DNA of 64,000 nucleotides from Candidatus Heimdallarchaeota archaeon (lineage in GTDB: Archaea; Asgardarchaeota; Heimdallarchaeia; Heimdallarchaeales; Heimdallarchaeaceae), in contig JAEOTE010000007.1 in assembly GCA_016839945.1 (NCBI GenBank), positions 64,001-128,000 of the forward strand, read 5' to 3'. This document shows positions 44,399-63,637 of the stretch, piece after piece. A model generated the notes under the pieces. It saw nothing but the letters and a program-made list of their open reading frames with translations. It was not told the DNA's origin and did not search any database. How positions within the stretch are numbered: the first letter of the stretch is position 1; each line of letters starts with the position of its first letter. The position numbers were made by a program, and so were the translations under genes.

Positions 44399-46756
44399 TT
44401 ATTTTGAGTACTCTACTAGGAATTCATCAAATTTCATTTGTTTATCATGAAAATACCTCCTTAAAACTCTTGTATGAATCTTAAGAAGTTGTTTTGATAA
44501 ACTTGAGATTTTCTTATCTTTTGCAGCTGTTTTTATCAATACCAAAATTATTTCAGCATTTAATCCTCGAGATTTATTCGCAAAGGTTTTTCTTCCTTCA
44601 GCATTTAGTTTTTTCATTTCTTTAATAATGAATTTAGTACTTTCCTGTCCAAGATTATTCAGAGCTTTTATTCCTAGTTTATGTTCTTCCTCAACCACTT
44701 TTTTAACAGCTTCAGGAACGATAGATGTTTCTCTAGCTAATGAAAGGAGAATTACAAGTCTATCTTTAGTTTTGGTAGTTTTTATTTTACCATAGTATTT
44801 TTTCAGAGGATTAGCAGCATTTTTACCCATGTTTTTAATAACTTGCTGAAGATTGTTAAACCACCTTTCATCAGCTGTTTTTAATTTAGGAAGTATTATG
44901 TCAAGGATTTTGCTATCCATTTGACCAAGAGCTTTTATTGTGGATTTTACTAAGTTTTGATTAGGAGCTGATAATTTATCTGAAAGTTTTTTCACAATTG
45001 GAGCACCAATTTGAACTGCAGCATATACAGCTGCTTCTCTTACCAATATTTTTGGTCTTCTCATATTATCAATAATAACATCAACGACTCCTGGATCCTT
45101 TAACTCACCTAAAGCTCTTGTTGATATTTCAGCAATTGAATCATCATTATCTTTTGCTGCTCTTATTAATGTCATTAGTGCTCGTTTGTGTTTTATTTTT
45201 CTAAGAGATTCAACCGCTTTTCGTCTTAGATTTATATTTGGATCAGATAAAATTGATGAAAGAATTGGTACGGATTTTGCACCAAATTGGTTAAGAAGTT
45301 CACATGCTTTTTCTCTTATTATAGGATCGATTTCTTTCAAAGATTTCTCTAATAGTTGAAAAAGCTCATCATTTATATCTCTGAATTTACCTTTATGAAT
45401 AGCGAATGAATGCCCTAAATCTTGTAGTTCTTTTTCTGGATAATAGATGTACAAAATTGTACCTAACTTAACAACTTGAGGTAAATTAACATCCAATAAT
45501 CCATCGAGAGCCAGTTCAATGTTCTCATTACCGAAATAATGTAAAACTTCTATTGCGTTTTTTCTAAGTTGTAAATCATCTTCAGTTAATTCCTCTATTA
45601 GAACGCGAATTGAAGGTGTTCCAAGTGTGAGTAAAGCTTGTGTAACTGCTTCGATGATTGATGGATTCTTTCCTGCTAATTGTGTAGTTAATAAACGAAT
45701 TGCCCCTTCATACCCATATTTCTGGCTCATTACTAAAGTTAGACAATGAGCGGCATTTTTTCTTACATTTTTCTTCCCTTTATGAAGAGCATCCATTAAA
45801 TAATCATAGCTTTCATCACCAATTCTTTTCATAGTTTCAATAATAAAAGGTACATTTTTGTCCTCTTCAAGAGCAGTTATTAAATGGGGGAGAACACTCT
45901 CTCCAATCAGTGCTAACGATTTAGCAGCATAATATCCTGCTGGGTCACCTTTTTTGAATTGTTTAACTAAAATGGTTGTAGCCTTGGGACTCCCTAAATT
46001 ACCAAGAGCTTCGATTATAGATAGTTGAGTATCTATTGTATCATCAAAGTTAGATAATCTGTCAATGAGAATGCTAGAGTTCTTTGGATCATCAACATGC
46101 ATAAGAGCTAGAGATGCATATTTAACATGCTCTTGCTTATCTGTTTTTGAAACTAAAGTTCTAAGTTCTTTCACTATTAAATGAGTTAATTCCGGATATT
46201 TGGTTAATGTGAGTAAGGTAAGCTCTGGAAAAGTAGGATTGAATTGATTCATTCTAAAAGCTAATATCTTTTTTATGCTCTTAGGATGCTCTGATATAAA
46301 GTTAAAATCTATGAAGGTTTCTTCATAGTTCGAAAAAGAAGAATAACAAGTTCTTGCAGAAAGTTCAGCTAGAGTTGAAGAAACGGGTGTTACTGAATAT
46401 GATGCTTTGATTGAATTGAATATATCTCCAGGTTTAAGCGATGTTATAATTTCACAAAGAATTTCAAAGCTCTCTTCTTTAACTAAGTAATCTGCTAGAA
46501 GAGAGATAAAATGATCAAGCTTTTCAATAATCACTTCTCGGATTTGAGGATCAGGTTTTTTTATGTATGCTTTTAGAATCTTCTCTGTAGGAACATAGGA
46601 GGTACTGAAAAGCAGTTTGAGTGCATTTCTTCTAATAATGACATCATTGTCTACTAAAAAATCAACCAAAATATCATAATCTTTTATATTTTCTAATTTT
46701 ATTTTTTCAATCTCATCTTCCTCATGGAGAAGAAGTTTCAATTGCTCCTTATTCAA
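44399..46756 (-). CDS. HEAT/PBS-lyase repeat protein
   Basis: Many repeats such as IRRNALKLL, VRKNAAHCL, LRKNAIEVL, LRRKAVESL, VREAAVYAA. Confidence 0.9.
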   Translation of the reverse strand: MNKEQLKLLLHEEDEIEKIKLENIKDYDILVDFLVDNDVIIRRNALKLLFSTSYVPTEKILKAYIKKPDPQIREVIIEKLDHFISLLADYLVKEESFEILCEIITSLKPGDIFNSIKASYSVTPVSSTLAELSARTCYSSFSNYEETFIDFNFISEHPKSIKKILAFRMNQFNPTFPELTLLTLTKYPELTHLIVKELRTLVSKTDKQEHVKYASLALMHVDDPKNSSILIDRLSNFDDTIDTQLSIIEALGNLGSPKATTILVKQFKKGDPAGYYAAKSLALIGESVLPHLITALEEDKNVPFIIETMKRIGDESYDYLMDALHKGKKNVRKNAAHCLTLVMSQKYGYEGAIRLLTTQLAGKNPSIIEAVTQALLTLGTPSIRVLIEELTEDDLQLRKNAIEVLHYFGNENIELALDGLLDVNLPQVVKLGTILYIYYPEKELQDLGHSFAIHKGKFRDINDELFQLLEKSLKEIDPIIREKACELLNQFGAKSVPILSSILSDPNINLRRKAVESLRKIKHKRALMTLIRAAKDNDDSIAEISTRALGELKDPGVVDVIIDNMRRPKILVREAAVYAAVQIGAPIVKKLSDKLSAPNQNLVKSTIKALGQMDSKILDIILPKLKTADERWFNNLQQVIKNMGKNAANPLKKYYGKIKTTKTKDRLVILLSLARETSIVPEAVKKVVEEEHKLGIKALNNLGQESTKFIIKEMKKLNAEGRKTFANKSRGLNAEIILVLIKTAAKDKKISSLSKQLLKIHTRVLRRYFHDKQMKFDEFLVEYSK

Positions 46757-49124: not shown

Positions 49125-49227
49125 TTTTTATTTTTCTCCTCAAACGGAAAAACTTTTAAAAGTTCTTCATGCAATTTAACAATACTCAATTTACGTACAA
49201 TTGATAACTGGTTTACAGGTGAAAAAA

Positions 49228-49644
49228 ATGAGTAAAAAAGAAACAGATGAAAAAGTAGACGCAAAAGAAGAAGTCGAAGAAGAAGTCGAAGAAGAAGTCA
49301 AAGAAGAAGTCAAAGAAGAAAAAAAAGCGACTAAAAAGGCAGCTCCTAGGAAAAAAGAAGAAAGCCAAATAATCTATATCGGAAAGAAAAATACTATTAG
49401 CTATGTGCTTGTAGCAGTAACAATATTAAACAAGAGTGATACTTGCGCTATCCAGGCAAGAGGAAGACAAATTTCAAAAGCCGTAGATGTCGCAGAAATA
49501 ACTCGAAGAAAATTCCTACAAGATATGGTTGAAGTATCAAAGGTTGAAATAGGTTCCGAAGAGCTCATGAGTGATAGGGAAGGGGAAGAGCCAACTACTA
49601 AAACTGTGTCTACAGTAGAAATAGTCCTGAAGAAAAAGAAATAG
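49228..49644 (+). CDS. albA: DNA/RNA-binding protein Alba with acidic N-terminal extension
   Basis: IYIGKK..SYV, ARGRQISKAVDVAEI, VSTVEIVL; start moved to ATG 49228. Confidence 0.92.
   Translation: MSKKETDEKVDAKEEVEEEVEEEVKEEVKEEKKATKKAAPRKKEESQIIYIGKKNTISYVLVAVTILNKSDTCAIQARGRQISKAVDVAEITRRKFLQDMVEVSKVEIGSEELMSDREGEEPTTKTVSTVEIVLKKKK
49264..49320 (+). repeat. 12-bp coding tandem repeat (RAAGAAGAAGTC, about 4.7 copies)
   Basis: Encodes [KE]EEV repeats in the Alba N-terminus. Confidence 0.9.
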
Positions 49645-49713: not shown

Positions 49714-51123
49714 TTAGATGAAATCTCCAGTCTCAATTTTCTGAGGAAGATAGAAATTTGTTATATACTGTGGATCTCTAGCATTTAGTGCTTGTATTTC
49801 TGCTTTGTAACCACTTGAAATTAAGATTTGTAGTTGTTCTTTCCATCGGGGTTTTCTTTTAACAAATTCCTCTTCTAACATAAGTTTCGATCTATGAATA
49901 TCCTTGGCTGTCATTTTCAGTAAAGTACTTTGAGGAATATCAAAACCGCTTTCTTGGGACAAATCACTAGGGAGTAGACCTAACCATTTGATATTAGGTA
50001 CTGCAAGATGACTCGATTCAAAACTCAAAGCTTTACTTCCAACACTATAGACTCTCATGATTTCAAAACCATATGGATCAGCGTCCATAAGTGAGAATAT
50101 AGGAAGGTTCAGCTCATCATTAATCTTCTTTAGGAACTGCCTTGTTGCCACATCAGGTTGTCCTTTAGCTGTAATTAAAATACTTGGAACATAATCATAG
50201 AAGTGATCTTCAGCTAATCTATTGAAAACCGCGTCTTTTTCTATAACTAGAACCATTTCCGCATCTGTATCTAAGTCTTCTATATCATCAATATTAGGAG
50301 ATATTGCTTTTCCTGCACCAATAGCTCTACAATCAATAAAATCTCCCTTTTCTTTGAAACTAATTCTTCCAACAACAATACCTTTTGATGATGCGCTAAT
50401 ATTAAGTGAAGTACGAGTAACTTGAAGCATTGCACTTAAATCTTCTAATAGTGAATCTGAAACTGTTTGTTTTTCAAATGAATTTACATCCATGTAAAAA
50501 ACATCTCTTTTTGTGCTGTGAATATCCCTAGAAAGTAAATCATGAATTAATCTCATTATTATCGTCATTTGTTCAACTGAACTTACAGAAGCTAAGTTTC
50601 GAAATTGACGTTCTATCATTTGTCTTCCAATTAGAACCAATTCTTGTTCTTCATCAAAACCTACATTCGTTCCACTCCTTGAAGGGATGTAGAAGGAAGC
50701 TTCAGATGGGTTGGATATGGCTTGCTGAATGAAATCAAGAGAATATTCAACTAACAGATTATTAGTCTCTTCAGATGTTTTTGTTTCTACGTGAGTTACT
50801 CCATAAGGCATGAAAAATTCTGTTCTATCAACAAGATCTCTTCTTACATCTTGTACTTTCTGAAGAGAGATATTATTTTTGACGCTCACACGCATGGCAT
50901 CTTTCTGAAGAGGATATCTTGAAAGTTTTCTAGAAGGTTCTAATCTATGCCATTTCTTCCCACTTCGAAGGAAAAGAATGTAAGTTCCTCTTTTTATATT
51001 AAAAGCTTCTTTCGTCCAATTATACATTTCTCTAACTAATATTTCTTTATCAAAACTAACTTGTTTTTCTATTGCTGGTAAGATTGTTGAATTTCTAAAA
51101 ATAAAATGATAATCAGGAGACAT
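49714..51123 (-). CDS. top6A: DNA topoisomerase VI subunit A with N-terminal ubiquitin-like extension
   Basis: TKRDVFY (catalytic Tyr), Toprim IEKDA and DADPYG, KGQPD..TR, KAEIQAL. Confidence 0.95.
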   Translation of the reverse strand: MSPDYHFIFRNSTILPAIEKQVSFDKEILVREMYNWTKEAFNIKRGTYILFLRSGKKWHRLEPSRKLSRYPLQKDAMRVSVKNNISLQKVQDVRRDLVDRTEFFMPYGVTHVETKTSEETNNLLVEYSLDFIQQAISNPSEASFYIPSRSGTNVGFDEEQELVLIGRQMIERQFRNLASVSSVEQMTIIMRLIHDLLSRDIHSTKRDVFYMDVNSFEKQTVSDSLLEDLSAMLQVTRTSLNISASSKGIVVGRISFKEKGDFIDCRAIGAGKAISPNIDDIEDLDTDAEMVLVIEKDAVFNRLAEDHFYDYVPSILITAKGQPDVATRQFLKKINDELNLPIFSLMDADPYGFEIMRVYSVGSKALSFESSHLAVPNIKWLGLLPSDLSQESGFDIPQSTLLKMTAKDIHRSKLMLEEEFVKRKPRWKEQLQILISSGYKAEIQALNARDPQYITNFYLPQKIETGDFI

Positions 51124-51124
51124 T

Positions 51125-54100
51125 TTATTTTACCTCCTTATTTTTGTTTTGAGATGTTGATTTAGAAGTATTGCTCTTCGAGTTTTTTTGAGAAACATCA
51201 AGCAATGTTGTTTGTTTTCCTTTTGTTGCTTTAGGTATAGTTGCAGTTTGTTTAATTACTACTTTTGGCTTAGTTACTGTCTTAGATTTAGTTGCAGTTG
51301 ATGATTTTGAAGGTGTTTTTGCAGCTGTTTTAACAGGTTTCTTCTTCTTTGGCTTGAGTTTTGCCTTGGGTAATCTATTCTTAAGATTTTTTATTGAAAG
51401 ATAGCTAAGGTTTGTTTTCTCATCCATGTTTGTTGATGGATAGACAACAAACTCCTTGATGGTTTTGACTCCCAACACTGTTATTTGATTTCTCGCTTCT
51501 GACTCCACTTCAAGATTTCTTAATGGTTTTTCTAAGAACTCTTTTAGGTCTTTTACACCTTGTTCTTCAAGCAGAGGATTCTTTACTATACTAGGTTCTG
51601 GAAATACTAATTGTTGTATTGTTTTTATCCCAGCTTTGTTCAGCTGAGTTATTAATTCTTCACTCAGGAAAGGATGAGTTTTTCTTATTAAAACAACCTC
51701 TTTTTCTGCATCCTTTATGGAATCCTGTGTAAAGTTTGAGAAGTAAGTTCTCAATTGACTTACCTGAATCCCAGTTATTTTGGAAAGACTTTGTGCAGTT
51801 TGTGCAAAAATATCCCAAAGTGTATGAATATTGTTCTTATGAAGTTCAGCTACACTTTGTGGATTGTCACTAATTATATCACTTAGATAATAAAATGGTA
51901 AATCTAGATTTCGTTTTATCCTTGAAACCTGAATACTATTCAACTTTGAGGTTTTCACAATCAGTTCTTCGGAAACATTCAAATGTGCTATAGTTGTATA
52001 TCCCGATTTGATTAACAGTTTTCTAATATTAGCATCAAATAATCCTATTTTCTTGACACTGTAACTCTTACTCTTCAATGTTTCATTGACTAACTGGCTA
52101 TTCATCTTATCTTGAAGAGACTTTACAATTGCTTGCTCTTGTTCAGTTAGACTTACGCTTATCGCTTTTCTTATATCTGGAATTGAAACAAAATCAATAA
52201 CTTGGATTATACCTTCGTTATGGAATTTTTCCAAAAGTCTTGGTTGATTAATGAATATAAGCATTGGAGCTCTTAACTTCTCGATAATTTTCACAATTTC
52301 AGAAGAATAGTCTTTAGGATCTTTGCTTTCAATATATTCAAGTAAAATTCCTATAGTTCGAATATCTTCTTTGCGTAGGAATGATAGTATTTCTTTGTCC
52401 TTTATGAACGAACTAAGTCTCTTCTGTTCAGAAGACATCATCCTTTCCACTCTTGTAGAGGAAAGTTTAGGTAGAAGAGATGTACATGTTGTTTCATATT
52501 CTATTTCACTTAATGATTTACAGTAAATTAAGAAATCAAAAACAGTCTGAAGCTTCATCTTATTCATTAAGTCATAAATCTTCTTATTTTCTCTAACAGG
52601 TGGAAGAGAAAAAAGATCAGTTTCTACCATGTTCTTTAATGAATCTGAGGTCTTCCAAACACTGCTTGTTTTTGATTTAGCTTGTTTATTGAATACAAGC
52701 GCTTCTTCAACTGATAGGATAAAACCTTTCTTAAGGATGGAAATATTGCTTCCTGAAAGTAAATCTTTAGGTATGCTTGTTAGGCTTCCTTCCAACTCCT
52801 TCAAAGTAATTAATGAGATATTCCTTAGATTTCTTAGGAAAACTGGATCAGGGATTTGGCTCTTAATCTTATTATAATCCTCTAACAATAATTCGTCTAT
52901 ACTCCTATAGGGAAGTTTTGAGATGATATCAACTTTCAACCTGTTTGGTTGAAGTAGGATTATTGTTCTTTTTAGATGATATGAGAGTTCATTATACTTC
53001 TTGCTTATCTTAGAATGAAGCTTTGAAATTGTTTTATTATAGAGTTCTTTTTCATGTTTTTGCAATAACAAAAGGTATTCTATTGAGGAATCTGACATAT
53101 CAAGTTTTTGATCTTTTGATTCAAGATTTAATACTTGCATCAGAGTTATACCTTTATTGAAAATAGAATTAATGGCATTTTGAATATCTTCTCTTTGTTT
53201 TTTGGTTACACTTATCTTATTGAGATTCATTGATAAATATGCTAAATCTAGTAGATTGAGAGAATATTCAGTTTTTGATACTAAATCCTTAAGCACTAAC
53301 TTTTCAAATACTTTTATTTTATCAAGTAAATAATTAGGAATCTTATCTAATGATACTTCTTCATCAAAAAGATCGGAGTAATACTTGATACTTCTCTGAT
53401 TTAGAATCGCTATATCCTTTGCAGAGAATATCTTACTTTCTTTTATCACTGGATGGCTTCCAAAATTACTGCTTGTTAAAGAGTATCTTATTTTTTCAAC
53501 TTCTGCTTGTTTTAATAAGAGAATTGAAGCAAGTTCTTTGTTAGTTAATAGATAAAATTCTTCTAAATTCTTAACATAGTTCTGTATGTTTTTCCAACTC
53601 TTAATTGTAACATCAGGAAGGAGTAAAAGCTCAATGGGTAGTTTTAGAATTCTCTTTATTTTGTTTGCCAGAGATTTGGAAAATGTGAACGTTTCTTTGT
53701 TTAAAGCAAAAATCAAATCATCCATTGTTGAATAATGTTTCTGAATTTCTTTCTTTGTTTCAGAATCGAAAATTTTCACTCTGCTTAACTGTACTTTCTT
53801 CTTAACATCTGTTTCAATTTTCTTGTAAGTTAGTGAAGAGGTAATTTCTAGGATTTTATCTTTCAATTTAGCAGGGGACAATATCATCCAAGAAGAGATG
53901 GGTTTTATTATGAGATCTCCTATAGTGTAAATACTCTTATCTTCTAAAATCTGTAGATCTGCCTTTGTTAGAACAGCGAGTGAGGAAATGGGTTTGGAGA
54001 ATGTTTGTTCAATTTTGAGACCCAAATCCGATAGTGAATCCTCTTTTTGATATAGTGTTGTTATTAAATCCAATATACTCTTAATTTTTGTTGTTTTTGT

Positions 54101-57100
54101 TTTCTTTGTGAACAATTCTTTAACATCGCTTTCCTCTATGTATTGATCTTTGGATATATAATTAGCTATTATACCTTCTTTTGATGCTAAGTAGTCTCCT
54201 AAGAATCCAACAATATTTGCTTTTTCTGTAGCATCACTTGTTTTCATTAAATCTCGAAAAGTTACTATTCCAGAATCTAAATAGTTGCTTTTTATTTCAT
54301 TTAGATTCTTTTGATTGATTTTTGGATAATAAAGGACAGAAGTGTTATAGACTTCTTCTGCTTTATTTTGAATTTGTTTAATCTTTTTCTCTGAAACTAA
54401 CCAGTCGTAAATTGTGTTATTCATTAAATCCTCGAGATTGTAAATTCCTATAGATTTCAGATAATTTCTGTCTTGAGCTGATAGGAAGAAAATTTCTTTC
54501 AAGTTTTGTTCTGCAACGGAATCTATTCGTTGAACAATCGAATCTACTTTGAAATTCTTAATAGTATTTTGAATAGTTGTGACTTTTACTTTTGAAGTAG
54601 TTGCAATAACTTTAGGAGATAGATAGAAGATATCTGCAATAATATTAACACCTGCAGATTTCATTTTCTCTAAATCTTTAGGATCAAAATCTAGAAAGCG
54701 TAGATTCGCCAATAAATATGGAGTAATTTTCTTGAAAATGACTTCATCATCTTTGAATGTAGGTGATGTCAATATTGATTTGTATGAAGAATATCCTTTG
54801 TTTGATAAATCAACTTCTAATTCGGATAATGGTTCTTTAAATCCCTCTTCTTTTATACCTTTTATTAACGAGAGAGAGAGAATAATTTCATCTTGAATAT
54901 TCTTTGGTAATTTATTAAGGAATATCAAATGCTCAATGATGGTTGTGAACCCTTTTTCATAACAATAATCTAGTGACTCTTTTGTTATTGAGGATAAATA
55001 GCTGATATTATTGGATAATTGACTTCTGTAGTCATCAACTTCTTTTCCTTTTACTTTACTATTAGTTACGATATGACTAACAGGAACGAAGAAAAGATGC
55101 TCAACTGTTGTTATACCTATTTGAAGGAGAGAAGTTGCTGTCTTCTTTGGTAATCCCAACATTTCAATTGAGATACCAAACTTATCAATTTTCTTCAGGT
55201 TTTTAACAAGATAATCTGGTTCTTCTTTCTGTTTTGTAATAAGCTTACTAAAACTTGCTGGCCAATTCTTCTGAGGTATAGCTAACAAATCGTTATATGT
55301 TGTTATATTACTATTTAACAAGTCTTTAATTTCTGTATCTTTCAGCTTTAATGATTTTCCAATTAACGTTATTGGGGTTAATAAAATAGAGATGAGTTTT
55401 ACAAGATTTTTCTTTTCCTCAATAGGTATTGGTATTAAATCAAGATTAAGCTCTGATGCTTGAACTAGAGATACACAACCATACTCGGAAAGAATGGTTT
55501 TGGTTTCCTTTGTTATTTCAGAGAATAGGCTTAAATCAAGACCTATTAATTTTACATTTTCTTCTAATGATTTAATATCAATAGTTGTTTTAATGGTCCT
55601 TATTTTTTCTTCTGCAACATTGATTAGTTTGGCTAAGAGTGGAGCTGGAATGAGAAGGAATTGGTAAAGGTTTCGAATGCCATTGTGTTTTAGTTTTTCT
55701 ATTTGTTTGGAAGTTAGGTTACCTATATAGGATAATGGAATACTTTTTAGTGATAGAAGTAGAGGGCAAACTTCTGAGAGTAATTCTCTTTTTTCTACAA
55801 TCTTACTATCTAGTGATAAAAGCTCATCTAGATAGAGTATTTTTTCATCCTTTAATCTCTTAATAAGAGCTGAATCTGAAACAATCTTAATATCAGAGAG
55901 TTTGATCGCCCATTCTGGAGGGCTTATCTGTATAACTATACTATTAAGAACCTCTACTATTTTAGAATGCAGATCATGATTTTCCTCTTTCTCTGATAAA
56001 CATAATAATCCTGATACAATGTTGTTACAATCGCTTTGAGACAAAATATTCAATTGTGCAATGTTAAGCTCAACGTTAGAAATGAGCCATGAAATTGGCT
56101 TAAACATATTTGAAGTGATTATTCTGATTAATGATTTCTCGATATCTCCAAAATCAAAAACTGGGTGAGGTATGAAATCTACTAATAATAGAGCACTTGA
56201 TAATCCATATTTCATAAATTGTTCTTCTGCTTTATTTGGAAAGGAGAGAGCATGATCAATATAGTATGAAAATGTTTCTGACATTCTTGTACTCAAATTA
56301 AATTCTCTTTGGAATATTCTTATTTGCTTTGCTACAGCTTTTGGTATACCAATTATTGTGTTGACATTTGTTGAGAGAAGTTCAATAACATGTTTAATAC
56401 CATTATTCCATAGAACTCCTTTAGAAGAAATATCAAAACCTGGTAATGCAAGAACATTCAAACACAGAAAGCTAACTAATTGTTCAATAAATGCTATGCT
56501 TGAGATTTTTTCTATTCTTTCAGATTCTGATAGTTGTAGCAGTGCATCTGGGATAAAACCAAATATATCTTCTACAGCTTTTTTTGTTGGATCGAATTCA
56601 AGAGATTTAAGCAAGTTGATTATAGGTTCGTTAAGGGTTAATGTTCTACCTTTTGAAAGTGTGAAAGTGCCTTTCCTAGCTGAACTTATGGTTTTTGGAA
56701 TTGAACCATTCAAGGCTCGTTTCAAATCCTTATCTGAACAATTAAAGAGATCAATCAACCTCAGAATTCCTTCACTAGTTAAGTTTAGTTTCTCCTCTGA
56801 AGATAACTCTGAAATTCGGTAAATTGAGATGTGACACGCGTTTAGAAAATCTCTCATATAGTCCCCAGAGACACTCAATGTAGGATATGCTTGATAATTT
56901 GAACTATACAAATCTTGAACATGTATTTTTCCAGATTTAAGTAGAGAATTAATTTTTCCCTTTGATAAAACAAAGAAGTTTACTAACTCGACACCTTTTC
57001 GTTTAACTTCTTTCATCAAATTAGAAGGAGTGATTTTGTCCAAGTATGTTTGCACTTTTTTCTCTGACATGTTTAGTAAAAGAGAGATTGTAGAAACATC

Positions 57101-60100
57101 CTCTGTAATAAAGGAGAGGATATCACCTACACCTGAATATATAAGCTTCATTACATGATGATTATCTAAACCAATAAAAGCTACAGAAGAGCGATATAGT
57201 TGCACTTCTCTAAAGATATCTAATCGAACTAGAGCAGGACGAGATTCTCTTATTTCTTCCATTCTTGATATAAAGTCTTGTACGGAGTTGATACCTATAT
57301 CTAGTAGTTTTTCGAGATAATCTTCCTCAATTGAAGGACAAACAGTAAGAGGTATAGCAGAACTAATTCTTCTTTCTGATAACTCATCGAATGATATGAG
57401 ATCTAGTGCATGAAACTCTTTGTATATTGGATTTTGCGTAATTGTAAATAACTCATCTCTATTCAATAAAGCAAGATCTATAACGGAATTTATTTCATGA
57501 TACTCCAGACGTTTAATTTCATCATAAGATAGAAAGCCTATGAATCGGATTGAGCCAGATAAGAGTTCTTTTGCTTTCTTATATACGTCAACTTGAAGTA
57601 TTTCAGAGATACCTAACAAAGATGCTGAATAGAAGAGAGTTTCAATATCTGTAATCCCTAAATCTTTTAGCTCATCTAGTTTTTTCTCTGGTATTAGTTC
57701 TGATGGTCTTATTAAGTGAGATTGTGATAAACGGAAGGACACAATATCGGTGTAGGTTAGACCTTCTTTTATTTCTCTTATTTGTTTCTGGGAAAAACCA
57801 GAGATTTCTGAGAGTTGCTTTTCTGGAAGTGAGAAGAAATCAATCAATGTATTAATTGAAGATTTGCTCAACTTGAGAGTAAGTTCTCTTGGAAGCCCCA
57901 TGGAAGCTATTGGGATTGCTAATTCCATTATTAGTTTATTAAGAGAGTCAGTCTCCATTAAACTTGAGAAGAAAGGCGAGAGGGCAGAATGTTCCTCCAG
58001 ATTTATTTCAAATACATCACCAATTATGACGTTTTTGTATTCTTCTCTACGAGCTTTTCTGATCTTAGTGAAGAAGGGTGTGATTCTAAGAGGTAACTCT
58101 AAAATTGATCGAATTAATGTTAGATTATAATGATCTGTAAGGTATTGTTTGTCTTTACCAGTTAAGTCTTTTATAACTTTTGGATCAGTAATAACATCTG
58201 ATAACGTTTTATTTTCTACTTCTTGAATAACCCTGTTGAAATATGATGAATTATATACAGATGCAGGTAGTTTAGCGAAGTAATGGAAAGCTTGCATTAC
58301 TATTATTTTTGAAGAATATGTAGAAACAACTCTGTAAAGCACTGGGTCTTTAAGATCTATATCAGGAATGAAAAGTAATTGGTAAACATAATGGATATCA
58401 TTTTGTTCTAAAACCTCTAATGAAAATTCTGAAATCTCTGTAAAAATCTTCAAAGGTAAGGTGAGGTATTTCTTAACAGCTGATATCTTTATCCACAATT
58501 CTGGATTAGAGAAATAATACTGTTCTTCTATAGTATAGAATATTTCTTGAATTGTTTGGAATCTTTCAAAGTGGAATATTGAATCTTTACTCAATAATCT
58601 TTGTTCAAGTTTATCAAACAATTGAGTTTCAAAAGCAAAAATACCCTTTTGTTCATACATTGCTTGAATGCTTGAGGATGTCAGAGAAGTTATTATACTT
58701 TCAGCATCCTTTGGAGAGATTTTTATGAGTTTGCTTAGTTTTTGAGATGATGCAAGAATAAACTCAGATATTGTTTTTATTCCATTTTCTCTTAGAATTT
58801 CTGTTTGACTAAATGAGAGCGATGGTAAGAAATAAACAGGTAGTGAGAAGTAGCCAAATATATCTGAAAAGTCTAAAGCACTTTTTATTGTTTCAAATCT
58901 TTCATCTGGTATTCCTGTTTTTTCCATCAGAACTTCAGGAGAGGATAACATAAAACCAAGTAAAGTCCTTATTTTTGCTTTTTCTAATAGTTCTATGATT
59001 TCAGGATCTAGCATATCAGAAATATGATCCAAAGATAGATTCAAGATAGCTTTAAAGGATTCAATAACATCCCATGGTAAAATTTCCTCATTCCACTTAT
59101 CTTTTGAAGTTGAGAAGTATAAATCCTCAATTGTCATTATGTTATTTTCATCCAACACTCTGACAATTCTAGGTTCTAATATTCCTAATTCAGAAAGGTC
59201 AATTCCAGTATCACTTATTCTAACATTCCTTTGAAGAAGTATAGCTTCTTCATTATCTACTCCTAAGAAAGAAGCAATATCTTCAGATTTACTTACTAGT
59301 AAATCAATAATTTTAGTGATTCCATTATTTCTCAAAATGTTGAGTTGTTGGGTTGTCAAGGTTCTAGTTTGGACCTCTTCTATTTCTTGTGTTTCTTCGG
59401 ATTCTTCAACTTGAACAGTTTTCTTGATGATTTTCTCCCATGTTACTAGTGTTAAAGGAGACCTCAGTAGCTTTCTGAACTTATCAATGACATTCCAGTT
59501 AACTACTGCTGAAGAAAAAGTGAGAGGGTGGGCTAAGTAAAAAATCTTATCCACTGTATCATAGCCAGAAAGTATTAGTGATACAATTTCGTGTGAAGAA
59601 AATCTCTCTGATTCTTCGTATTCAAATGATATTAGAGAAGTATATTTATTTCCTGATTTTTCAAAGAAATGAGTACCTTTTTTCTCAATTGCGAAAACAT
59701 CTATTAATTGCTGGGTTTCTTGAGTAGACCTTACTAAAGTAGCTGCTAACTCATCAATAGTATATTCAAATAATTGATGAATAGCTGTTATCCCTCTGTT
59801 CCTTAATTTATCAAAATCTTCAAGAGTTAACTTACTTATTCTAGAAATTGGTAAACCTAGAGTTTGAACGAATTCATCATATTCACTAATTAGTAAGATT
59901 TCCTTACTAAATTGATCAGTTTCTGAAAATGTTCTATTCTTGATATTATTGTGAAGCTCAATAACAAGTTTTCTTTCTTTAGCAGTGTTTAACTCAGATT
60001 CAATAATTTCTGGAATAAGATCTAAAAATTGTCTTACTGTTACAATATTTCTTAATTTCAAACGAAGAAGAGCTTCTGTAAGCAGAGATAAATCCTTGAA

Positions 60101-63100
60101 TTTGTCTGGATATAGTTGAGTAAGTTCGATTATTTCCATATTCGCTAATTGATTTAAATGTCGAATATTTTCCCAAAAACCTGTATTCAATGTTGGTTTT
60201 TCAGTAGGGTAAACACTGTATAGATCTTGGATTGTTAGGTTATGTTTTTCTATGAATTGAACTAATCTTGGATATTGGTTACTAAGTAAACTCAAACTCT
60301 TTCCAAATTCTGTTCTATTCTTTTTTACTTCTTCTTCACTTATTGATTGTTTTAAATCCTTTACCCTTTCTTCTGATATGTTTAATACATCAGATAAATC
60401 AGAATTAGACCAGATTGAGAACCTGCCAATACAGTTTATTCCTATTTCTTGCAATAAATATGATTGCCTTCTTAATGAAGGAAATGCAAAAGATATAGGA
60501 GTTAATAAAAGATTTGCAGTTTCTAGATATGTTCTTTTTGCTTCTCCTGTTAGATTGTAAGCTTCAGGAGGATTGTAAAAAATTTCCTCAATAGATACTA
60601 TTCCTGCAGTTTTTAGTGTTTCTTGATGTTTTATCCATTTGAATATTGGAGTTCCAAGACTCTTTTTTATTCTCTCAACATCTTTTTTTCTCAAACCTAA
60701 CTTTCTTAATTGAGGTGATGGAAATGCTAAGAATGCAGTAGTTGTAAAAATTTGAAGATTAACTAATTGTTGCTCAATATCCTTTGGTATTACTTTAACG
60801 TGAGACAAATCTTTATCTTTCTTTGACTCTCGAATGTGAGATATTAATTTGTGTTTTGATTCCTTGAGTAGTAGATCACCTATCAATTTGTAATCTCTTT
60901 TCAAAATTGATGCTGTGGGTAAAGAGATTAGGTTAGTAAGAGTCTTTATACCTTTTTGAGATAGAACCTTTATGGCTTCTGTTTCCTCTTCCCTAAGTAT
61001 TTCATCAGAAATTAACTCAAATTTAGATAGTTCAATAGATTCTGAGGATTTGACTAGAGTATCTAGAAAGGTATTGTACAAATTCCTCTCTAGTTCCTTT
61101 ATTACAACAAGATCATCTAGTTTAGCATTAATTAAATCCTCAATTGTTTTTATTTTTCTTCTATGAAAAGCGTTCTTAGTATAAGCATCTGTCCAATCAG
61201 GTTTCATCTTAGTTACATTGGTCTTAGAAAATGTAGGAAACTTATCACATAGTTGAGAAAAAATATTTTGCAGGTAATTAACTAAAACAGCTGTTACTTC
61301 TGTTTGATAGTTTACTGAATATGGTAATTTTGTTTGGTAAAGAAATTCTTCAATGGTTGTATCTTGAGATATCAAACCTTTAGAATTATCTTTTAGATAC
61401 TCAAAAGTTGGAAATAGTGTATCTATTTTTATGTCATCAACTTTGGTGAGTGAAGCCAGAAGTTGTTTTCTTTTTTCTGATTTAGCTTTACTTGTTTTAT
61501 CCTTGGTTAGTAAGTACTGATGAAGGAGCTGTTCTTTTTTATTTTCGAAAAGTTTCTCTAGTAATCCAGTAACTGTTTGTAGTTTGTTAAAATCTGTAGC
61601 GAAATAATGGTAACTGTTTTGTATCCATCTTCGATATAAAGCCTCTTTTAATGTGATTATAGTTTTTTCATTTTGAGTAAATCTTCTTTCTATAGTTCTA
61701 CTTACAAAGAGTTTAGGATCAAAACTAGGGCTCATTCCCTCTCTATCAAGTTCAGATATCGTTCTAAGTTTGATATTGTAGATATCTTGTTTAGTAAGTT
61801 CTAACAGTTTTGCTATATTATCAGATGGTGTTATGAGAAAATCAGAAATAGATTCAATATTGTTTGTTCGAAGAACTGATTGAATTCTTGATGGACACCA
61901 TACATTAGCACCAAATAATCTTCTTCCCAAAGGCATGAAGAGCTTAACTTTTTTTGTTGCACCATGAGCCAAGGCCGCAGCAATTCTGTCAGTTTCTAAC
62001 CTAAAATCAGTATAATTAACTGCTTCATCTTCTAAAATTTTTGTTAGATTATCTATGATTATTGGTGCAGATCTTACAAAGCGTGATAATCTTGCATGCT
62101 CTCTTCTTCTTCTTTTAGCTCTGCTTAAAAATGTCTTTAGTCTTCTCCCCAACTGCATTAATGCTAATCGTATCTCTTCCTCAATCTCAGGAACAATGGA
62201 TATATATTCTTTACTTGTTTCTGGAAAAGGAATCTTAGTACTTACTACTGATACAGCTACAGCTAGAGGATCAGATTGCCTTGTTAACCCATATTCATTC
62301 CATCTTATTGAAGAAACAGTATGAGAAATAACATCGTTCCCTGCTCCAAATATGAGTGGGATACGATTTGCGTACCTATAAATTATTTTATTATCTTGAA
62401 CGGTAGCTCCCTTTACTTGCGAAGCTTCATTTACTCCCCCTCCATAACCTATTGCTACTTCTACAACAAAGGGATGACCAGAATAAGCTTTAGGAGCTCT
62501 TGTTACAGCTTCTACAAATTTAGGTTCCAGTTCTTTTTCTAAACCCCTCCTTAATCTATTCGATCCTAATGGTGATAAAGCAGTACCTTTTGGATCATCA
62601 AACTGAAATATTCTATCTCTTTTTCTTTTAACATCTTTCGCTTCTTGGTAAGCTTTTACAAAACCTTCATGAACTATTCTTCTGATTTCGTGAGAGGTAA
62701 TATCTTTTGGAGATTTGTTTGGATCAATCTCTAAAAGTTGGAAGAAACCTTCTGCTATTTCCTCATTTACTCCCATGAATTGTGTTGCTAGAAATTGCTT
62801 GAGTGTTTTGCTTTGACTTGCAGTTAATTCTGCCTTGAACTGAGTAATATCACACCCCCATGGATGAATTTTAACTGGTTGAGGAGGGGGAGGCATATCA
62901 TCTACAACACTAAGAAAGTCCAGATCTTCATATTCACCTTCTTTATCTGCAGGAACTTTGATTTTAAAACTGGAATAAGGGGTAATAATTGCTAATTGCT
63001 TAAAATATTCTTTTACGCTATTCTTAGCAAGCCTCCATGCTCCTGTAAAAGTGATTGATATTTCTGTTCCAGGTTCTTCAAGATAGTTTGGATCTCCTGG

Positions 63101-63637
63101 TAGGTACTCACGTTGTTCCATGATTACAGGTTCGTTCTTTTCAAGATTTATCATTAAATGAAGCTCATGGGTAATATCATCCATAAAGTATCTGCTTCGT
63201 ATTTTTGCAGGTAAGTCAACAGATGACATAGAGTATAGCAAACACATTTTTGCTCCTAAACCAAAACGACCTCGTGTTTGAATTACTCCGTATTTTGTTC
63301 CAGTCAATACTCTCCCAAAAAGTTCAGCAATCTGGTGTCCAGGAACTCCTATCCCATTATCTTTACAGGTTAGTTGTAGAAAATCTAGATGCTTTTCTAA
63401 TTTTCTGTATTGCGTAACATCAAGCAATTCATTTATTTCTCTGCTGGAAAGTTTTCTTAAGTCTAAATCAATAACAGGATTAATTCCTCTTTTTTCTGCT
63501 GCATCTAGTCCATTCTCAACTAACTCTCTGATACTTGTGAAAACAGCTCTCATTGAATTACCAAAACCAGCAATGGCTCTGTTTTCATTAAAGAAAGCAG
63601 CAGCTGACATTTTTTTTGTAACTGTATCTTCTGACAC
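51125..63637 (-). CDS. top6B: Giant DNA topoisomerase VI subunit B fused to a long HhH-like repeat array
   Basis: GHKL motifs ELVENGLDA, DNGIG, TRGRFGLG, GTEI; transducer RYANRIPL, STKIPF; then about 3600 extra aa in one open frame; GTG start. Confidence 0.93.
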   Translation of the reverse strand: MSEDTVTKKMSAAAFFNENRAIAGFGNSMRAVFTSIRELVENGLDAAEKRGINPVIDLDLRKLSSREINELLDVTQYRKLEKHLDFLQLTCKDNGIGVPGHQIAELFGRVLTGTKYGVIQTRGRFGLGAKMCLLYSMSSVDLPAKIRSRYFMDDITHELHLMINLEKNEPVIMEQREYLPGDPNYLEEPGTEISITFTGAWRLAKNSVKEYFKQLAIITPYSSFKIKVPADKEGEYEDLDFLSVVDDMPPPPQPVKIHPWGCDITQFKAELTASQSKTLKQFLATQFMGVNEEIAEGFFQLLEIDPNKSPKDITSHEIRRIVHEGFVKAYQEAKDVKRKRDRIFQFDDPKGTALSPLGSNRLRRGLEKELEPKFVEAVTRAPKAYSGHPFVVEVAIGYGGGVNEASQVKGATVQDNKIIYRYANRIPLIFGAGNDVISHTVSSIRWNEYGLTRQSDPLAVAVSVVSTKIPFPETSKEYISIVPEIEEEIRLALMQLGRRLKTFLSRAKRRRREHARLSRFVRSAPIIIDNLTKILEDEAVNYTDFRLETDRIAAALAHGATKKVKLFMPLGRRLFGANVWCPSRIQSVLRTNNIESISDFLITPSDNIAKLLELTKQDIYNIKLRTISELDREGMSPSFDPKLFVSRTIERRFTQNEKTIITLKEALYRRWIQNSYHYFATDFNKLQTVTGLLEKLFENKKEQLLHQYLLTKDKTSKAKSEKRKQLLASLTKVDDIKIDTLFPTFEYLKDNSKGLISQDTTIEEFLYQTKLPYSVNYQTEVTAVLVNYLQNIFSQLCDKFPTFSKTNVTKMKPDWTDAYTKNAFHRRKIKTIEDLINAKLDDLVVIKELERNLYNTFLDTLVKSSESIELSKFELISDEILREEETEAIKVLSQKGIKTLTNLISLPTASILKRDYKLIGDLLLKESKHKLISHIRESKKDKDLSHVKVIPKDIEQQLVNLQIFTTTAFLAFPSPQLRKLGLRKKDVERIKKSLGTPIFKWIKHQETLKTAGIVSIEEIFYNPPEAYNLTGEAKRTYLETANLLLTPISFAFPSLRRQSYLLQEIGINCIGRFSIWSNSDLSDVLNISEERVKDLKQSISEEEVKKNRTEFGKSLSLLSNQYPRLVQFIEKHNLTIQDLYSVYPTEKPTLNTGFWENIRHLNQLANMEIIELTQLYPDKFKDLSLLTEALLRLKLRNIVTVRQFLDLIPEIIESELNTAKERKLVIELHNNIKNRTFSETDQFSKEILLISEYDEFVQTLGLPISRISKLTLEDFDKLRNRGITAIHQLFEYTIDELAATLVRSTQETQQLIDVFAIEKKGTHFFEKSGNKYTSLISFEYEESERFSSHEIVSLILSGYDTVDKIFYLAHPLTFSSAVVNWNVIDKFRKLLRSPLTLVTWEKIIKKTVQVEESEETQEIEEVQTRTLTTQQLNILRNNGITKIIDLLVSKSEDIASFLGVDNEEAILLQRNVRISDTGIDLSELGILEPRIVRVLDENNIMTIEDLYFSTSKDKWNEEILPWDVIESFKAILNLSLDHISDMLDPEIIELLEKAKIRTLLGFMLSSPEVLMEKTGIPDERFETIKSALDFSDIFGYFSLPVYFLPSLSFSQTEILRENGIKTISEFILASSQKLSKLIKISPKDAESIITSLTSSSIQAMYEQKGIFAFETQLFDKLEQRLLSKDSIFHFERFQTIQEIFYTIEEQYYFSNPELWIKISAVKKYLTLPLKIFTEISEFSLEVLEQNDIHYVYQLLFIPDIDLKDPVLYRVVSTYSSKIIVMQAFHYFAKLPASVYNSSYFNRVIQEVENKTLSDVITDPKVIKDLTGKDKQYLTDHYNLTLIRSILELPLRITPFFTKIRKARREEYKNVIIGDVFEINLEEHSALSPFFSSLMETDSLNKLIMELAIPIASMGLPRELTLKLSKSSINTLIDFFSLPEKQLSEISGFSQKQIREIKEGLTYTDIVSFRLSQSHLIRPSELIPEKKLDELKDLGITDIETLFYSASLLGISEILQVDVYKKAKELLSGSIRFIGFLSYDEIKRLEYHEINSVIDLALLNRDELFTITQNPIYKEFHALDLISFDELSERRISSAIPLTVCPSIEEDYLEKLLDIGINSVQDFISRMEEIRESRPALVRLDIFREVQLYRSSVAFIGLDNHHVMKLIYSGVGDILSFITEDVSTISLLLNMSEKKVQTYLDKITPSNLMKEVKRKGVELVNFFVLSKGKINSLLKSGKIHVQDLYSSNYQAYPTLSVSGDYMRDFLNACHISIYRISELSSEEKLNLTSEGILRLIDLFNCSDKDLKRALNGSIPKTISSARKGTFTLSKGRTLTLNEPIINLLKSLEFDPTKKAVEDIFGFIPDALLQLSESERIEKISSIAFIEQLVSFLCLNVLALPGFDISSKGVLWNNGIKHVIELLSTNVNTIIGIPKAVAKQIRIFQREFNLSTRMSETFSYYIDHALSFPNKAEEQFMKYGLSSALLLVDFIPHPVFDFGDIEKSLIRIITSNMFKPISWLISNVELNIAQLNILSQSDCNNIVSGLLCLSEKEENHDLHSKIVEVLNSIVIQISPPEWAIKLSDIKIVSDSALIKRLKDEKILYLDELLSLDSKIVEKRELLSEVCPLLLSLKSIPLSYIGNLTSKQIEKLKHNGIRNLYQFLLIPAPLLAKLINVAEEKIRTIKTTIDIKSLEENVKLIGLDLSLFSEITKETKTILSEYGCVSLVQASELNLDLIPIPIEEKKNLVKLISILLTPITLIGKSLKLKDTEIKDLLNSNITTYNDLLAIPQKNWPASFSKLITKQKEEPDYLVKNLKKIDKFGISIEMLGLPKKTATSLLQIGITTVEHLFFVPVSHIVTNSKVKGKEVDDYRSQLSNNISYLSSITKESLDYCYEKGFTTIIEHLIFLNKLPKNIQDEIILSLSLIKGIKEEGFKEPLSELEVDLSNKGYSSYKSILTSPTFKDDEVIFKKITPYLLANLRFLDFDPKDLEKMKSAGVNIIADIFYLSPKVIATTSKVKVTTIQNTIKNFKVDSIVQRIDSVAEQNLKEIFFLSAQDRNYLKSIGIYNLEDLMNNTIYDWLVSEKKIKQIQNKAEEVYNTSVLYYPKINQKNLNEIKSNYLDSGIVTFRDLMKTSDATEKANIVGFLGDYLASKEGIIANYISKDQYIEESDVKELFTKKTKTTKIKSILDLITTLYQKEDSLSDLGLKIEQTFSKPISSLAVLTKADLQILEDKSIYTIGDLIIKPISSWMILSPAKLKDKILEITSSLTYKKIETDVKKKVQLSRVKIFDSETKKEIQKHYSTMDDLIFALNKETFTFSKSLANKIKRILKLPIELLLLPDVTIKSWKNIQNYVKNLEEFYLLTNKELASILLLKQAEVEKIRYSLTSSNFGSHPVIKESKIFSAKDIAILNQRSIKYYSDLFDEEVSLDKIPNYLLDKIKVFEKLVLKDLVSKTEYSLNLLDLAYLSMNLNKISVTKKQREDIQNAINSIFNKGITLMQVLNLESKDQKLDMSDSSIEYLLLLQKHEKELYNKTISKLHSKISKKYNELSYHLKRTIILLQPNRLKVDIISKLPYRSIDELLLEDYNKIKSQIPDPVFLRNLRNISLITLKELEGSLTSIPKDLLSGSNISILKKGFILSVEEALVFNKQAKSKTSSVWKTSDSLKNMVETDLFSLPPVRENKKIYDLMNKMKLQTVFDFLIYCKSLSEIEYETTCTSLLPKLSSTRVERMMSSEQKRLSSFIKDKEILSFLRKEDIRTIGILLEYIESKDPKDYSSEIVKIIEKLRAPMLIFINQPRLLEKFHNEGIIQVIDFVSIPDIRKAISVSLTEQEQAIVKSLQDKMNSQLVNETLKSKSYSVKKIGLFDANIRKLLIKSGYTTIAHLNVSEELIVKTSKLNSIQVSRIKRNLDLPFYYLSDIISDNPQSVAELHKNNIHTLWDIFAQTAQSLSKITGIQVSQLRTYFSNFTQDSIKDAEKEVVLIRKTHPFLSEELITQLNKAGIKTIQQLVFPEPSIVKNPLLEEQGVKDLKEFLEKPLRNLEVESEARNQITVLGVKTIKEFVVYPSTNMDEKTNLSYLSIKNLKNRLPKAKLKPKKKKPVKTAAKTPSKSSTATKSKTVTKPKVVIKQTATIPKATKGKQTTLLDVSQKNSKSNTSKSTSQNKNKEVK

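Follow-up and report, generated by a model that had tools for sequence, protein, structure and literature searches.

Residues 1 to 85 of the topoisomerase VI A subunit (Top6A, a Spo11 homologue) encoded in a 64,000-nt stretch of a Candidatus Heimdallarchaeota archaeon genome (assembly GCA_016839945.1, contig JAEOTE010000007.1, positions 64,001 to 128,000; hereafter the window) almost certainly constitute a genuine, integral ubiquitin-like domain (UBL). The domain (50869..51123, minus strand) opens a protein of 469 aa, whose coding sequence (49714..51123 with its stop codon, minus strand, from the open reading frame [ORF] call and Pfam) follows that of a giant B subunit, Top6B, of 4170 aa (51125..63637, minus strand, from the ORF and profile matches). 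A preliminary description of this DNA had proposed a ubiquitin fold at the start of Top6A from the letters and translations alone, and structure prediction with AlphaFold2 (AF2), structural searches with Foldseek and VIA-align (VIA), and profile comparison with hhalign all agree with that proposal. Spo11, which initiates meiotic recombination, descends from Top6A. Heimdallarchaeales and Hodarchaeota-named genomes share the combination described here, in which a Top6A with a ubiquitin-family domain is paired with a Top6B seven to eight times as large as normal. In full-text literature searches, whose coverage excludes subscription journals, no account of a UBL on Top6A came up, and an automatic RefSeq name of the Borrarchaeum orthologue is the sole trace of it.

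The fold was predicted by running AF2 on residues 1 to 118 with a 27-sequence alignment and on the full-length protein with 39 sequences. The shorter model (predicted local distance difference test [pLDDT] of 78.6) has the order beta-beta-alpha-beta-beta-turn-beta and, after it, a helix at residues 87 to 100, and the full-length model (pLDDT 83.4, with UBL blocks at 79 to 92) has the same topology. DSSP assigned strands 4-11 and 18-25, helix 30-41, strands 48-54 and 57-60, a turn at 66-69, and strand 77-83 in both models, which is the order of strands and helix read from the sequence in the preliminary description and the beta-grasp topology of ubiquitin-like domains (beta-beta-alpha-beta-beta-[3-10]-beta in approximately 75 to 85 residues). 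Every strong Foldseek match in the PDB (E of ∼4e-4 to 1e-3) was a ubiquitin-fold domain. The VIA search covered 48,161 chain representatives, and all 50 matches listed were UBLs, with Z scores of 9.9 to 12.1 and, for most of the matches listed, a root mean square deviation (rmsd) of 1.8 to 2.6 Å across 72 to 83 residues. Among the matches listed were TBCE (Z 12.1), the USP11 UBL (11.9), the UBXD7 UBX domain (10.6), and ubiquitin (10.5), as well as TBCB, ISG15, SUMO, and talin F0. The best structural matches among those listed were type-2 UBLs, namely, those of TBCE/TBCB, the USP11/USP15 DUSP-UBL, talin/kindlin F0, and the Rad60 SLD (Z 10.4 to 12.1, rmsd 2.0 to 2.6 Å, 80 to 83 residues). Like these, the Top6A domain is part of a larger polypeptide and has no C-terminal di-Gly; unlike them, it resides in a topoisomerase subunit, a host for which no precedent was found, and its sequence identity to them is only 10 to 20%.

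In sequence, the nearest family is ubiquitin. Comparison of the UBL profile with one ubiquitin repeat (hhalign) gave a probability of 94.5% and an E value of 8e-8, and paired L15, L50, G55, and K56 with ubiquitin L8, I44, G47, and K48, respectively. The domain thus keeps the equivalents of these four residues, and it is N-terminal, as in ubiquitin-fusion-degradation substrates; it differs from ubiquitin in a 3- to 5-residue insertion in the beta3-beta4 hairpin (RS..KKW), in the absence of the LRLRGG tail, and in a strongly basic isoelectric point (pI). The gapless match of the last segment to ubiquitin claimed in the preliminary description was reproduced by HMMER, which aligns the family consensus “leeekkLsdyplekek” likewise. 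Judging from its in/out alternation, the last strand could be shifted by one residue relative to that gapless alignment. Searched against PDB sequences, the UBL profile matched single ubiquitins at E values of 0.009 to 0.8, and polyubiquitins scored higher through summation. Among 1.84 billion protein representatives, 423 matched at E ≤ 1e-3. The multi-repeat top matches that were checked were polyubiquitins; eight single-stretch matches were also checked, of which one carried TP6A_N, one carried Ubiquitin_2, and six, all short, had no Pfam match and may be N-terminal fragments of Top6A.

A significant match to the ubiquitin family is reached at the level of the Top6A family. The N terminus of the Borrarchaeum orthologue exceeds the Pfam cutoffs for both ubiquitin (PF00240, 31.2 versus 25.4 bits) and Rad60-SLD (PF11976, 33.3 versus 23.8 bits). 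The N terminus encoded in the window lies by itself below the Pfam cutoffs, its best score being to FERM_f0 (17.7 versus 26.9 bits), a family that matches 9 of 27 members. The Hodarchaeota-named N termini have no Pfam match by themselves, and their homology to the present UBL was therefore established by profile-profile comparison (hhalign, 93.6%, E 2e-7). A profile search of the genome from which the window derives found no second copy of the UBL. The automatic names of these proteins each cover half of the molecule: the 463-aa Borrarchaeum protein (WP_287583880.1) is a “ubiquitin-like protein” in RefSeq, and JGI calls the relatives “meiotic recombination protein SPO11.”

The domain is neither a modifier nor a UBX domain. 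No aligned member has a Gly-Gly after the last strand; here the sequence runs VSVKNNISLQKV, continuing to a helix and then the body of Top6A, and the next glycine is G108. The exposed or processable C-terminal Gly-Gly of type-1 modifiers (ubiquitin, SUMO, NEDD8, and SAMPs) is thus absent, which makes the domain an integral (type-2) UBL, not cleavable, as had been supposed at the outset. The same description had called it UBL/UBX-like, and only the first half of that label stands. UBX domains carry an Arg in strand 1 and have strands 3 and 4 connected by a Phe-Pro-Arg loop, as seen in UBX-p97 N-domain complexes. This signature is absent, the beta3-beta4 loop being R53-S-G-K-K-W58; Pfam UBX matches only 2 of the 27 members (best E 0.091), and the UBX structure, at Z 10.6, fits no better than other UBLs.

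A downstream start, which would leave the domain an untranslated or decaying relic and which the preliminary description had itself raised, is extremely improbable. Nothing was found in favor of such an annotation artifact, although internal methionines do exist at positions 32 and 77. A GGAGG ribosome-binding site (51133..51137, minus strand, within the 3′ end of top6B) stands 9 nt before the Top6A ATG, and GGAGG or AGGTG precedes the ATG at the same place in six genomes of the same genus. The ATG abuts the top6B stop codon (TAA), with 1 nt between the two genes, which lie on the same strand with top6B first. The 39 database homologues, of 463 to 470 aa, align from Met1 with identity down to 37% over the first 190 residues, and the domain is conserved with its frame intact across three lineages that comprise dozens of species. 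Ratios of nonsynonymous to synonymous substitution rates (dN/dS; Nei-Gojobori) were 0.10 to 0.21 for the UBL (codons 1 to 85; for the closest relative, dN 0.064 and dS 0.423) and 0.008 to 0.09 for the catalytic core. The confident fold prediction also argues against an artifact. By these comparative measures, residues 1 to 85 are translated and under purifying selection, about 10-fold more relaxed than that on the core.

Behind the UBL follows an otherwise complete Top6A (all features on the minus strand). The helix after the UBL (residues 88 to 100, 50824..50862, AF2) is succeeded by a low-confidence linker (residues 101 to 116, 50776..50823, from AF2 and the alignment; pLDDT < 50 at residues 100 to 106 of the full-length model) and a long N-terminal helix (residues 117 to 137, 50713..50775, full-length AF2). 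The canonical N-terminal beta-strands of Top6A (residues 143 to 173, IPSRSGTNVGFDEEQELVLIGRQ, 50605..50697) were located by alignment to the S. shibatae and M. mazei proteins, and Pfam placed TP6A_N, the winged-helix/5Y-CAP domain, at residues 183 to 242 (50398..50577) and Toprim at residues 290 to 463 (49735..50256). Scores of 74.1 bits (PF04406) and 201.7 bits (PF21180) assign the protein to Top6A/Spo11, and both the tyrosine at the catalytic position (Tyr210, codon 50494..50496) and Toprim residues E295, D347, and D349 are invariant in 39/39 sequences. S. shibatae Top6A (2zbk_A, 389 aa; phmmer E 4.9e-57) aligns such that its residue 8 pairs with residue 111 here, and the noncanonical part therefore amounts to ∼105 residues, made up of UBL, helix, and linker. 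The length of 469 aa given in the preliminary description holds, as does a UBL at residues 1 to 85, and its figure of ∼85 extra residues is replaced by ∼105. From about residue 105 onward the protein resembles the canonical Top6A of archaea (S. shibatae 2ZBK chain A, M. mazei 2Q2E/9O0G, and M. jannaschii 1D3Y), sharing the N-terminal strands, the winged-helix/5Y-CAP Tyr, the Toprim acidic residues, and the position of its gene directly after top6B. It departs from them in the ∼105 additional N-terminal residues and in its partner, a Top6B of 4,170 aa versus ∼530 to 620 aa.

The segments between the UBL and the canonical strands differ in conservation. Helix 88-100 is the fastest-evolving part of the protein (dN/dS of 0.3 to 0.5, and ∼1 against the closest relative) and is present also in relatives that lack the UBL. 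The linker motif P106-x-G108-V109...V112 is invariant within the order, with P106 alone invariant across all 39 sequences, and is probably a strand that would become ordered solely upon partner binding; a recognizable form (LPEGIHEI) is also seen in UBL-less relatives. Asgard and eukaryal TopoVIA/SPO11 proteins are reported to have an extra N-terminal helix (Brinkmeier et al. 2022, PMC9665070), to which helix 117-137, a long helix before the B-binding strands, probably corresponds. The UBL lies upstream of that helix and is confined to one Asgard clade; ubiquitin is not mentioned in the main text of PMC9665070, whose supplements were not searched. According to a recent analysis (PMC12680538), no other archaeal relative is as close to eukaryotic Top6A/Spo11 as the conserved Asgard copy. 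In the models, the UBL looks like a bead on a tether, formed by helix 88-100 and the flexible linker of ∼15 residues.

The distribution of the domain was determined within the class and, beyond it, in a phylum-wide search covering 200 genomes. In the family to which the window belongs, a 469-aa Top6A with the UBL accompanies a Top6B of 4,150 to 4,300 aa, and the other three families of the order have UBL-bearing Top6As of 462 to 470 aa with Top6Bs of up to 3,470 to 4,244 aa. The Hodarchaeota-named family combines a Top6A of ∼469 aa, with a divergent homologous N-terminal domain, and a Top6B of ∼2,312 to 2,346 aa; in Borrarchaeum, outside the class, a UBL-Top6A of 463 aa is paired with a Top6B of 2,289 aa. 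In a sister family, which lacks the UBL, a Top6A of ∼400 aa with a short basic tail goes with a Top6B of 1,110 to 1,155 aa, and there is a second, canonical pair as well. Co-occurrence of the extension with giant Top6B across genomes, anticipated in the preliminary description, is therefore observed: UBL-bearing Top6As (Heimdallarchaeales, Hodarchaeota-named genomes, and Borrarchaeum) are always accompanied by a Top6B of 2,300 to 4,300 aa. When a tree was computed from the catalytic core only, the 35 sequences with a UBL grouped together in a single clade (Shimodaira-Hasegawa-like approximate likelihood ratio test, 98); this was a quick IQ-TREE analysis, and the very long branches of the two canonical second copies make its rooting unreliable. 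The giant Top6B extensions are collinear through their first 1,600 to 2,300 residues. On the simplest reading, the UBL was gained once and inherited together with the long Top6B, and their co-occurrence then records one event and is not evidence several times over. An ordinary Top6A is also found in Asgard lineages with ubiquitin systems. In Borrarchaeum the two forms stand in tandem (L020:362-14606), as a Top6B(557)-Top6A(387) pair, a 968-aa HEAT-repeat gene, and the Top6B(2,289)-UBL-Top6A(463) pair.

The functional reading that we favor, to which we assign a probability of roughly 0.4, is that the UBL would act, within the giant holoenzyme of a special “long-B” topoisomerase VI, as an adaptor on a tether. 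The adjacent Top6B, the partner expected in a topoisomerase VI holoenzyme, has a GHKL and transducer core at residues ∼1 to 530 (Topo-VIb_trans, 184 bits; HATPase_c, weak), followed by ∼3,600 aa of helix-hairpin-helix (HhH)-type modules and a Lys-rich tail. In the M. mazei enzyme, cryo-electron microscopy shows that the winged-helix domains of Top6A bind a small helical hairpin at the C terminus of Top6B past the stalk and that stalk residues of Top6B contact the DNA arms (PMC13040014). This geometry would place the UBL where the giant Top6B tail starts and DNA passes, that is, beside the C-terminal hairpin and stalk, at the start of a HhH-rich extension of 1,800 to 3,700 residues. There, the domain would present a hydrophobic face resembling that of ubiquitin (L15 and L50) upon a strongly basic surface, dock on the Top6B extension and/or the DNA bound to it, and help to organize the giant DNA-binding tail or to set its position with respect to the cleavage core. 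Hydrophobic residues are kept at the positions of ubiquitin L8 and I44, which suggests a protein-binding face; the equivalent of V70 is uncertain, being Ser, Asp, or Glu in the structurally sensible register. The UBL has a net charge of +9 and a pI of 10.2 and is basic in 34/35 sequences (net +3 to +11, pI 9.3 to 10.3), in contrast to an acidic CAP and Toprim body (net −4 to −13, pI ∼5). In the UBL-less family, a basic tail of 18 to 21 aa (net +4 to +7) takes the place of the domain, and another large Asgard family has Lys-rich linkers with two to four HhH repeats there. Docking on the B subunit had been offered in the preliminary description next to coupling to the proteasome or Cdc48, and it is the more economical of the two ideas, with co-inheritance and geometry as its evidence.

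Several observations weigh against a tethered adaptor. The co-occurrence of the UBL with a long Top6B, as a single evolutionary gain, counts as one data point and not as a statistical association. The domain evolves faster than the core (identity within the order of 55% versus 83 to 86%), and the loops conserved in the order, N11-S-T13-x-L-P16 and G55-K-K-W58, are not retained in the Hodarchaeota-named and Borrarchaeum forms, so any interface would be lineage specific or loosely constrained. Because AT-rich genomes are commonly Lys-rich, the basic charge alone is weak evidence. A Pfam search of the 4,170-aa Top6B, of low sensitivity, found only HhH-type families and no UBA, CUE, UIM, or other ubiquitin-binding family. 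Prediction of a complex between the UBL (residues 1 to 105, 27-row alignment) and Top6B residues 470 to 1360 (the stalk plus ∼800 residues from the start of the extension, 25-row alignment) gave an interaction prediction score from aligned errors (ipSAE) of 0.00 in two runs performed without controls, a result that speaks neither for nor against binding.

Type-2 UBLs recruit partners in many eukaryotic multidomain proteins, and the domain could instead be a recruitment module for an external, nondegradative partner (replisome, segregation, or chromatin) that brings the giant topoisomerase VI to chromosomal sites. We consider this rather unlikely. The tethered, independently folding architecture, the conserved hydrophobic residues where ubiquitin has its usual interaction face, and the adaptor UBLs of TBCE/TBCB, USP11/15, and talin F0 as nearest structural neighbors would suit such a role, as would the tailed Alba gene that converges on top6A at a distance of 69 bp. 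No candidate partner with any evidence emerged, however, and no neighboring gene is conserved among the loci examined, the Borrarchaeum locus having a HEAT-repeat gene and a canonical topoisomerase VI pair instead. A built-in degradation or extraction handle is less probable still. According to this explanation, the uncleavable UBL is read by ubiquitin receptors, as in eukaryotic ubiquitin-fusion degradation, and might be extended at Lys56, after which Cdc48 or the proteasome would unfold or remove Top6A, for example when trapped covalently on DNA. The membership of the domain in ubiquitin proper rather than in a remote beta-grasp family, its flexible N-terminal attachment, and the invariance or near-invariance within the order of L15, L50, and K56 (ubiquitin L8, I44, and K48) are all in keeping with a handle, and two ubiquitin-family genes and one Cdc48 occur in the genome together with four E2-like matches. 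Against it, no receptor was identified, the UBX signature is missing, the ambiguous V70 equivalent would be polar or acidic in the sensible register, and a constitutive degron would be costly on an enzyme that needs to persist. The handle also leaves the tight co-inheritance with giant Top6B unexplained, and those Asgard lineages that combine ubiquitin systems with an ordinary Top6A manage without a UBL. The specific proposal that this “ubiquitin fusion” lets the Asgard Cdc48/proteasome or a ubiquitin-chain system seize Top6A stuck covalently on DNA is a shade more doubtful than the handle in general.

A role as a dimerization or ATPase-gate stabilizer is very unlikely. PMC6620310 describes the N-terminal UBL of human SMCHD1 as stabilizing the dimer of its GHKL-ATPase and transducer module, and a UBL coupled to a GHKL and transducer machine thus has a precedent. 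In SMCHD1, however, the UBL is on the ATPase polypeptide, whereas here it is on the cleavage subunit, whose N terminus lies at the stalk end, far from the GHKL gate (by the geometry of PMC13040014); a tether of ∼30 residues seems too short to span that distance.

The tethered adaptor and its alternatives differ in what they would imply. If the UBL organizes the giant DNA-binding tail, it would point to a new way to build a type II topoisomerase. If the ubiquitin machinery reads it, control of a topoisomerase would have been tied to ubiquitin signaling before eukaryotes, and if Cdc48 or ubiquitin seizes Top6A, the archaea nearest to eukaryotes would possess a ubiquitin-dependent route for clearing a covalently stuck topoisomerase or Spo11-like protein from DNA, and the system would be a forerunner of eukaryotic DNA-protein-cross-link and Top2 cleavage complex (Top2cc)/Spo11 processing. 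The UBL is small, self-folding, and easily deleted, which makes the question directly testable with recombinant protein.

Other arrangements of the two subunits were seen among the Asgard genomes. In one family (f11; L021 to L026, e.g., L026:287-2413:-), Top6A measures 700 to 790 aa and begins with ∼300 residues of Lys-rich low-complexity linkers and two to four HhH repeats (LPGVG...), so that DNA-binding modules of the kind found at the C terminus of the Heimdall Top6B sit on Top6A there. The C-terminal ∼95 residues of the giant Top6B (51128..51420), encoded right upstream of the UBL, form a Lys/Ser/Thr-rich low-complexity tail that resembles these linkers. From such comparisons, the junction between the Top6B C terminus and the Top6A N terminus looks like a preferred site for the addition of accessory modules. 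A Top6A match also occurs inside single open frames long enough to include Top6B, one of 1528 aa (G196:C50) and others of 1471 to 1589 aa (G104, G117, G159, and G183), which suggests natural Top6B-Top6A fusions or read-through of a short intergenic gap.

Top6A and Top6B each have a single match in the whole genome, which is 88% complete. A GyrA-type subunit is encoded as well (446 bits; G000:C62:3-1304), and the giant topoisomerase VI is thus not the sole type II topoisomerase of this genome. On the opposite strand, an Alba-family gene (49201..49644, plus strand; Pfam, 57 bits) converges on the 3′ end of top6A, with 69 bp between them, and its product has an N-terminal tail of ∼55 residues rich in Glu and Lys. 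Three kilobases from top6A, a 785-aa ORF (44399..46756), which looks like a HEAT-repeat protein, lies in one operon together with genes for a small GTPase and a CPBP protease.

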